This document shows, piece by piece, positions 4,616 through 5,440 of a DNA stretch of 18,090 nt (within the stretch, counting starts at the first letter, position 1; every line of letters begins with the position of its first letter). The notes under the pieces were generated by a model. That model saw only the letters and a list, made by a program, of their open reading frames with translations, was not told where the DNA came from and did not search any database. Source of the stretch: a virus (lineage: Duplodnaviria > Heunggongvirae > Uroviricota > Caudoviricetes); the IMG/VR virus record IMGVR_UViG_2537562191_000051. One strand, written 5' to 3'. The position numbers and the translations under genes were made by a program.

Positions 4616-5440
4616 TTAAATTCTGGTCCTTACAATATCAACCTGAAGATTCTTATCTTGTGCTGATTGATAAATGACAAACCTTTTACTACCTGCATTG
4701 AAAGAAGTAGACAAAACCAGACAATTATCATAACGAGCAAGAACATAATACCAACCATCATTATAATTAATCATTTCATATTCTTTCTTAAACTGTGGTT
4801 TGTAATATCCTGTCAGAAATGAAAAAAGCCAGAAATATGCCAGAAATATGCCAGAAATATGCCAGAAATATGCCAGAAATATGCCAGAAATATGCCAGAA
4901 ATATGCCACAAAAGCAATCATCACAATCTCAAAAAAATGTTTTTTTATAAATGGCTTATCATAGAAGCATGATACCGATAAAAATCGCCCATAAGATCTT
5001 ATCGAAATTGTAACCGCCAGCGCAATCGCTGCTGACAGTAGCAAAAGAGGTACCTGAATCTTCTGTCTCAATATAGAAAACTCAATAATTGCCGGCACAA
5101 ACAATAATTCCACAGCAAAATAAAGGCGAAATACATTTAGCTCTTGCATAGAATGTTTTCTTTTCACTGCGAAAAAGAATACAACACCAATACCCCAACC
5201 GATAAGAAATATAGCAATGACGATAACTGCAAAAAATAAACTTCTGGCAACATCATCAACACCTGCACCTACAATCCACCATGGGAAGCCGTAGTAAAAA
5301 GAAGTACCCCATCCATAGAAATAAGCACTCCCCCATCCAAGGCATCCCATGTAGGCAATAAAAAGTGAAGAACTCCTGAGCAACGCACCATCCTTCATAA
5401 CCACCCCAATACAAGATGATAACATTGGCTTACAACTCAT
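4616..5440 (-). CDS. Hypothetical polytopic membrane protein (moron between pR' and the lysis cassette)
   Basis: 274-aa ORF in visibly AT-rich DNA, where long open frames are unlikely by chance. Several hydrophobic helices (rich in F/W/Y/G/I) and a ~55-aa polar C-terminal tail. No recognisable family and no clear Shine-Dalgarno sequence. Confidence 0.5.
   Translation of the reverse strand: MSCKPMLSSCIGVVMKDGALLRSSSLFIAYMGCLGWGSAYFYGWGTSFYYGFPWWIVGAGVDDVARSLFFAVIVIAIFLIGWGIGVVFFFAVKRKHSMQELNVFRLYFAVELLFVPAIIEFSILRQKIQVPLLLLSAAIALAVTISIRSYGRFLSVSCFYDKPFIKKHFFEIVMIAFVAYFWHISGIFLAYFWHISGIFLAYFWLFSFLTGYYKPQFKKEYEMINYNDGWYYVLARYDNCLVLSTSFNAGSKRFVIYQSAQDKNLQVDIVRTRI
4828..4904. repeat. Perfect tandem repeat, 11-bp unit GCCAGAAATAT x 7, inside the membrane-protein ORF
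   Basis: Counted directly in the sequence, with partial units on both flanks. On the coding strand it is translated as the repeating ..FLAYFWHISGI.. segment. Confidence 0.95.

Follow-up and report, generated by a model that had tools for sequence, protein, structure and literature searches.

A variable 11-bp coding tandem repeat in a TfpB-family gene of an Escherichia coli O111 prophage

When the unit of a perfect tandem repeat inside a gene has a length not divisible by three, is the repeat an evolved on/off switch, a DNA-structural element or a recent product of replication slippage? This question was raised by an array of 11-bp units in a predicted membrane-protein gene of IMG/VR virus record IMGVR_UViG_2537562191_000051 (18,090 nucleotides; this whole stretch is called the window below). 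A first-pass annotation, made from the letters alone, had marked the array as a possible slipped-strand switch, or as phased bent DNA or protein-binding sites. By its sequence, the element carrying the array is a defective lambdoid prophage of enterohaemorrhagic Escherichia coli (EHEC) O111, about 12 kb long and located beside DUF1175-yfaA-gyrA; the window was at least 99.8% identical to EHEC O111 chromosomes over 18 kb, and its positions 1..11425 were 100% identical to assembly GCA_000194335.2. The tract is a real, previously undescribed, lineage-specific coding variable-number tandem repeat (VNTR) of a familiar mechanistic kind. We consider it likely that the array is young, that it was made and remodelled by replication slippage, and that it is neither an evolved switch nor a DNA-structural element. 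Literature searches for the 11-mer in either orientation returned unrelated eukaryotic primer sequences only, and no paper on an 11-bp tandem repeat in an O111 prophage was found.

Anatomy of the array and its host gene

Seven perfect head-to-tail units, GCCAGAAATAT on the plus strand and ATATTTCTGGC on the coding strand, occupied positions 4828..4904 (minus strand) within an open reading frame (ORF) at 4616..5440 on the minus strand. This anatomy, as first annotated, was confirmed by Tandem Repeats Finder and by direct reading; the program reported a single array at 4828..4912 with a period of 11, 7.7 copies, 98% matches, 0 indels and a score of 163. Positions 4905..4912 (minus strand) hold a partial eighth unit, GCCACAAA (coding strand TTTGTGGC), with one mismatch, and the array interval is delimited by the flanks GAAATGAAAAAA and GCCACAAAAGCAATC. 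With up to one mismatch allowed, the 11-mer occurred 7 times in the window compared with 0.38 +/- 0.60 times in 200 shuffles, and it was found nowhere in the window outside the array. The translated array reads ...FVAYFW HISGIFLAYFW HISGIFLAYFW LFSF..., which is the repeated peptide FLAYFWHISGI of the first annotation in a different register. Compared with the one-copy allele there are six more units, which encode a 22-residue insert, HISGIFLAYFWHISGIFLAYFW.

When the gene was rebuilt in silico with 0 to 13 units, a full-length product was obtained at n = 1, 4, 7, 10 and 13, showing that only changes of three units keep the frame, as had been proposed. At n = 2, 5, 8 and 11 a stop codon followed 4 codons past the array (after FFHF), and at n = 0, 3, 6, 9 and 12 it followed 12 codons past the array (after FFISDRILQTTV). 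Any out-of-frame copy number removed the last 70 residues; the predicted truncation of the C-terminus therefore stood, and the predicted size of the loss, about 60 residues, did not. The conserved 70-residue C-terminus (LFSFLTGYYKPQFKKEYEMI...RTRI) is encoded at 4616..4827 (minus strand), as delimited by the frame reconstruction and by alignment of homologues. In line with this arithmetic, alleles with n = 2 and n = 6 are annotated as frameshifted pseudogenes in deposited genomes.

The host gene was assigned to the TfpB family (PF27470) of membrane proteins on the basis of its ORF, Pfam listing, homologues, hydropathy and AlphaFold models. In a large protein search, a precomputed Pfam hit to PF27470 was attached to all 96 homologue clusters and to the window's own 269-aa product, and an alignment revealed invariant motifs shared between the window protein and the PF27470 homologues. 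The clusters, mostly of 237-238 aa, came from E. coli, Shigella, Citrobacter, Salmonella, Klebsiella, Cronobacter, Enterobacter and Yersinia. No significant match for the host protein was obtained in NCBIfam or in the local copy of Pfam, which does not include the PF27470 model. Its PHROG matches were to families annotated as unknown function (e.g., phrog_1521), some of which correspond to N-terminal fragments and others to C-terminal ones. Split versions of the gene therefore seem to have been annotated in phage genomes. The Pfam name may come from the Moraxella pilin-inversion region; a literature search on tfpB, Moraxella and piv found nothing, and literature on "TfpB" held unrelated usages only.

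The product is predicted to be a polytopic membrane protein with about five helices followed by a small conserved C-terminal beta domain, as judged from hydropathy and two low-confidence AlphaFold models. The mean predicted local distance difference test (pLDDT) scores of the 1-copy and 7-copy models were 60.5 and 61.6, and secondary structure alone was used. The repeat site, about three quarters along the gene, lies within the last predicted transmembrane helix, directly before the conserved motif YFWxFSFxxGxYKPQFKKEYEM. A single AYFW...FSF motif without any insert was present in 27 of 27 aligned homologues (from E. coli, Citrobacter, Salmonella, Klebsiella, Yersinia and Cronobacter). In the low-confidence models, the last helix ran unbroken over residues 158-208 in the 7-copy protein compared with residues 164-184 in the one-copy protein, so that the modelled hydrophobic segment of the 7-copy protein is about twice the length of a membrane span.

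The gene has alternative starts: the longest ORF (from 5440) encodes 274 aa, the start chosen by the Prokaryotic Genome Annotation Pipeline (PGAP) at 5425 gives 269 aa, and a Met codon at 5398 gives 260 aa. The Met corresponding to 5398 (MKDGALLRSSS) is where most full-length homologues (237-238 aa) start, and the start codon as annotated is probably wrong. The upstream ATGs are overlapped by a promoter-like site, at 5445..5416, that has an extended -10 element.

Copy number across genomes and its rate of change

The host gene was present in 692 of 5,426 complete E. coli genomes, in which copy number was read from the match length (759 bp for one copy, 770 bp for two and 814 bp for six). About 640 of the 692, including O157:H7, O103:H2 and others, had one copy and an intact annotated gene (WP_001302581.1); several O111 genomes were among those with one copy and an intact gene. 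Two copies were found in 38 O111 genomes and six copies in a single genome, that of O111:H8 strain 7-54 11A, and in all of these the gene was annotated as "frameshifted". None of the 692 genomes had seven copies. Phages 434 and 2B8 had one copy. Direct counting of the DNA in fetched loci confirmed n = 1, 2, 6 and 7 in otherwise identical O111 prophage copies. The copy-number polymorphism is thus a direct observation: the number differs among related genomes, as the first annotation had anticipated, and is not identical everywhere. The absence of the tract elsewhere is observed as directly.

The predicted product of each allele was then looked up by exact match among about 15 billion proteins, with counts taken in contigs. 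The one-copy product (247 aa) was found in at least 1000 contigs and the two-copy product (185 aa) in 65. Among larger arrays, the products of n = 4 (258 aa), n = 5 (196 aa), n = 7 (269 aa) and n = 10 (280 aa) were found in 6, 2, 11 and 1 contigs, respectively; the alleles with n = 4 and n = 10, known from these product matches, may lie in the same O111 prophage. The product of n = 3 (197 aa) was found in 12 contigs, all of them from Logan, whose k=31 graphs fail on arrays beyond about three units, so that this class may represent collapsed longer arrays. The products of n = 6 (208 aa), n = 8 (207 aa) and n = 9 (219 aa) were absent from the census; PGAP leaves frameshifted genes untranslated, which explains why the 6-copy product was missing though the allele exists. 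Clonal isolates were counted repeatedly, and the contigs are not independent.

A scan of IMG/VR for two or more copies returned three contigs, all with n = 2. In one of them (IMGVR_UViG_2703718869_000030; positions 2952..3618 of locus L009) the 2-copy allele lies in a partly different prophage, the 5' part of the gene being 98.35% identical to the window and the upstream region diverging. This context suggests either that the tract was moved by recombination among lambdoid prophages or that the duplication predates the O111 remnant. A metagenome scan for three or more copies gave one match, OOFU01005034.1 (positions 1150..1515 of locus L013), a long degenerate satellite of GCCAGAAATAT and its variants without E. 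coli flanks. This satellite is apparently unrelated and possibly eukaryotic, with the unit in common by coincidence.

The O111 alleles with n = 1, 2, 6 and 7 had zero single-nucleotide polymorphisms over window positions 4100..8256, the two repeat arrays aside and with one locus disrupted by an insertion sequence (IS) left out (L011), indicating that the tract changes faster than point mutation accumulates. The 6-copy genome likewise had 0 mismatches to the window over 6.8 kb. The second repeat array is a hexamer array, AAATAG x10.8, at 8298..8362, with the HNH endonuclease gene on one side and a divergent hypothetical gene on the other. Its perfect units numbered 5 to 10 among otherwise identical prophage copies. 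In the 38 complete O111 genomes the 11-bp tract remained constant at n = 2 while the nearby hexamer array varied by -4 to +3 units, as read from whole-locus lengths (-24 to +18 bp in steps of 6). The 7-copy allele was found in 11 separate assemblies with two hexamer genotypes (9 or 5 units). The constancy of n = 2 and the sharing of n = 7 by 11 assemblies argue indirectly against very high switching rates.

Primers of the O157/O26/O111 scheme for multilocus VNTR analysis (MLVA; PMC10062581, S5), covering some but not all loci and directions of the 17-locus Japanese/PulseNet scheme, were compared with the window at up to 3 mismatches. None of the primers tested flanks the 11-bp array. The O157-9 forward primer alone matched the window, exactly, at 8088..8114 beside the hexamer array, and no match to the O157-9 reverse primer was found in the window. 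The hexamer array is the O111 homologue of this known hypervariable MLVA locus and is far more variable than the two-copy 11-bp array, from which it is 3.4 kb away in the same prophage. Like the EHEC prophage MLVA loci such as the O157-9 hexamer, the 11-bp array is a VNTR in a lambdoid prophage that differs between otherwise identical isolates; unlike O157-9, it is far less variable at two copies and disrupts a reading frame. The core AGAAATA shared by the 11-bp unit and the hexamer array, which the first annotation had pointed out, is real. However, it occurs 6 further times outside both arrays, compared with 2.75 expected, and the resemblance is a weak one, that of a 7-mer in AT-rich DNA, and a coincidence.

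Origin by slippage and competing explanations

In the one-copy allele, the site reads ...TTTGTGGCATATTTCTGGCTTTTTTC... (coding strand ...GCTTTTGTGGCATATTTCTGGCTTTTTTCATTTCTGAC...). The coding strand contains TTTGTGGC-ATA-TTTCTGGC, a pair of 8-nt near-repeats exactly 11 nt apart within the last transmembrane helix. Near-repeats at such a spacing are a classic substrate for slippage duplication, and the TTTGTGGC near-repeat probably seeded the first duplication. We infer slippage as the mechanism and the following order of events. The ancestral gene would have been intact with one copy, the form seen in phage 434 and, among many other E. coli, in O157:H7. Misalignment of the short direct repeats in the EHEC O111 lineage would have duplicated the 11-nt ATATTTCTGGC, shifting the frame and removing the conserved 70-residue C-terminal domain. 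Two perfect units would then have allowed more slippage, giving 4, 5, 6, 7 and 10 units in some sublineages. Slippage of 11 nt is RecA-independent and is too large for mismatch repair. The 7-unit allele of the window (7 = 1 + 6) would have regained the frame at the cost of 22 extra hydrophobic residues, with the last helix becoming more than twice as long. Hairpin-driven instability was rejected, as neither strand of the array folded better than shuffled controls; with no hairpin potential in the array, plain direct-repeat misalignment suffices.

The decay of the prophage was directly visible. No head, tail, replication or immunity genes were left in its annotated gene content, and the remnant is flanked by IS1203. 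In O111 strain 95JB1 (NZ_CP021335.1, from an Australian outbreak), IS1203 truncates the TfpB-family gene so that its N-terminus is missing (positions 3301..4976 of locus L011), and the Q and phosphatase genes are also gone; this truncation adds to the evidence that O111 can do without the gene. The gene seems to be under relaxed selection, because the OFF allele n = 2 is common in O111, the prophage is a remnant and the gene is truncated in 95JB1. The locus therein resembles ordinary prophage pseudogenisation, with an 11-nt duplication between short direct repeats, a defective IS-ridden prophage and a gene that PGAP calls "frameshifted". Unlike in simple frameshift pseudogenes, the O111 duplication grew further, reaching up to 10 units, and the frame was recovered in some alleles.

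Several points weigh against this account of a slippage product under relaxed selection. In-frame expanded alleles (4, 7 and 10 units) were represented by 18 contigs, compared with 14 (plus one pseudogene) for 3, 5, 6, 8 and 9 units; this exceeds the one-third share of in-frame numbers and could reflect selection to restore the frame. The annotation, assembly and clonality biases of the census also belong among these points, and because of them no conclusion can be drawn from this modest excess. The 7-copy allele occurred in assemblies that are seemingly more than a decade apart, judged by accession style alone. Finally, the one-copy O111 alleles are either ancestral or revertants.

The excess of in-frame contigs is the first support for compensatory frame restoration, in which the 2-copy frameshift was mildly deleterious and alleles of 4, 7 and 10 units were selected for the function of the C-terminus and not for switching. 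The recovery of the 7-copy allele in 11 assemblies with two hexamer genotypes fits this explanation, as does the C-terminal domain being the best-conserved soluble part of the family. However, the contig counts are confounded by the omission of pseudogenes by PGAP, by assembly bias and by clonality, and no other state is nearly as common in O111 as the 2-copy OFF allele. Further, a 22-residue insert in the last helix may not yield a working protein; the models are of low confidence (pLDDT about 61). We regard frame restoration as unlikely.

A true contingency locus would be one in which the tract is kept because gain or loss of 11 bp switches the TfpB-family protein ON and OFF to the benefit of the lysogen or the prophage. 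The repeats are perfect, their unit is not a multiple of 3 and sets the frame, and the gene is prophage-borne. In addition, near-identical isolates differ in copy number with both ON and OFF alleles present, and the product is a membrane protein whose gene has a moron-like position after Q. By contrast, the tract is not maintained wherever the gene occurs, which would be a defining feature of an evolved contingency locus: more than 90% of the genomes carrying the gene lack it, as do phages 434 and 2B8 and every homologue cluster examined. The OFF allele n = 2 is fixed in the 38 complete O111 genomes in which the nearby hexamer varies. The tract lies in a transmembrane helix, where ON alleles are set apart by insertions in steps of 11 residues that alter the region of a conserved motif, and the prophage is degraded, with the gene IS-truncated in one strain. 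The proposal of a contingency locus thus held in part: the tract behaves as a slipped-strand VNTR with frame-setting alleles, and an evolved locus is not supported, the tract being single-copy elsewhere and expanded in one clonal lineage. We consider an evolved switch quite improbable. Much the same low expectation applies to a contingency locus caught at birth, in which a chance duplication arose and selection now retains 4, 7 and 10 units and exploits slippage as a switch in the late operon.

Classical simple-sequence contingency loci include Neisseria opa (CTCTT), Haemophilus lic1A (CAAT) and mod (AGCC/AGTC). They have units of 1-7 nt in many copies that are conserved in the gene, functions at the surface or in modification, and demonstrated phase variation. 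The O111 tract is like opa, lic1A and mod in being a coding repeat in which slipped-strand frameshifts give ON and OFF variants; unlike in these loci, its 11-nt unit is unusually long and the tract is not conserved.

By analogy of features, the closest functional analogue of the O111 tract is neuO of prophage CUS-3 in E. coli K1. As described in PMC3046976, which draws on Deszo et al. 2005, neuO carries a heptanucleotide VNTR, of 2-93 copies in natural alleles, just after its start codon and has been called a "mobile contingency locus". By the same account (PMC3046976), neuO is ON at copy numbers divisible by three and at no others, its switching is frequent, and its peptide repeats tune the activity of the enzyme. 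So described, neuO and the O111 gene are each carried by an E. coli prophage and contain a perfect non-triplet repeat, with a full-length product at every third copy number and an added repeat peptide, and they would share the slippage mechanism inferred for the O111 tract. Unlike the repeat of neuO in that description, the O111 tract lies in the last quarter of its gene, within a transmembrane helix, and it is absent from nearly all alleles, being confined to an O111 sublineage with 2-10 copies. It further differs from neuO in that any switching or phenotype of the O111 tract is hypothetical.

A role at the DNA level, in which the 11-bp phasing would create bent DNA or an array of protein-binding sites with a regulatory or architectural function, is very improbable. 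Curvature was predicted with a dinucleotide wedge model and Bolshoy-Trifonov parameters. In this model the array reached about 76 degrees per 105 bp, which placed it in the top 0.6% of windows in this sequence. However, the A-runs are A3 runs with a period of 11 and not 10-10.5, A6-tract controls reached 120-124 degrees, and the AT-rich one-copy region was already at 55 degrees. The array lies within coding sequence, its 11-mer occurs nowhere else in the window, and it was not conserved at homologous positions in related functional elements; its absence from nearly all homologous loci, including those of functional phages, makes a functional DNA element unlikely. Beyond the moderately raised predicted curvature, nothing spoke for phased A-tracts serving as bent DNA or binding sites. 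The highest predicted curvature of the window, about 85-89 degrees per 105 bp, fell outside the repeat array, at 5480..5570, in AT-rich DNA that separates the late promoter from the TfpB-like gene.

The remaining explanation, misassembly of a shorter tract into seven copies, can practically be dismissed: short-read assemblers can mis-size short-period repeats, and the 3-copy allele seen in Logan k=31 contigs only may be a collapsed longer array, but the 11 contigs that encode the identical 7-copy protein belong to separate assemblies, 6 copies are present in a complete genome, and the 85-bp array is shorter than ordinary reads.

Prophage surroundings and implications

Gene order was taken from the annotation of the equivalent O111:H8 locus and from the called genes of the 7-copy contigs. 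An NleG effector gene is followed by IS1203, Rha, Rz, lysozyme, holin, a hypothetical gene, DUF3927 (TciB-like) and the repeat gene; beyond the repeat gene come Q, a Ser/Thr phosphatase, NinG, the HNH endonuclease, two hypothetical genes, NinE, xis and int. The Q antitermination protein gene lies at 5678..6301 (minus strand; ORF, annotation, PF03589). The DUF3927/TciB-like small membrane-protein gene, at 4372..4530 (minus strand), is directly downstream of the repeat gene, and the lysis cassette, with a class II holin, an RrrD lysozyme and an Rz-like lysis protein, occupies 2604..3750 (minus strand).

A lambda-type late promoter pR' with a qut-like site was located just downstream of Q at 5600..5634 (minus strand; coordinates read by eye), and it matches the annotated "promoter" and "lambda Qut site" of HK542, mEpX1 and mEp234. 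This site and the position of the gene suggest that the late transcript begins with the repeat gene. The annotation of phage 434 places a terminator (positions 1603..1628 of locus L014) between pR' and its homologue of this gene. Its counterpart in the window, at 5532..5557 (minus strand), has a 4-nt deletion in the 3' stem/T-run and no obvious hairpin. If the 434-type terminator is tR', read-through without Q into the TfpB-like and DUF3927 genes is possible. A strong terminator-like hairpin with 8 pairs, 7 of them G-C, followed by T8, was found by a consensus scan only at 4167..4185 (minus strand), between the DUF3927 gene and the holin gene, so that the two genes for small membrane proteins may be a unit apart from the lysis cassette. 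No tRNAs or RNA elements were found between Q and the lysis genes. The sole Rfam match in the window was an ALIL pseudoknot at 958..1074 (plus strand), the programmed-frameshift signal of the IS1203 transposase.

If the ordinary reading, that of a young slippage product, is right, the locus provides a stepwise example, from 1 and 2 to as many as 10 copies, of a mutable tract born from a short direct repeat. It would then also be a possible extra typing marker for the O111 sublineage and a warning for annotation, as the same gene appears intact or "frameshifted" depending on repeat number. Should the locus prove to be a contingency locus caught at birth, it would add to neuO a second prophage-borne repeat switch in E. 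coli, one whose 11-nt unit is unusually long. If the in-frame alleles are selected or switching, the tract would represent rare repeat-mediated phase variation in E. coli and would offer a way into the function of the TfpB-family protein, which is widespread and whose gene directly follows Q in lambdoid phages.

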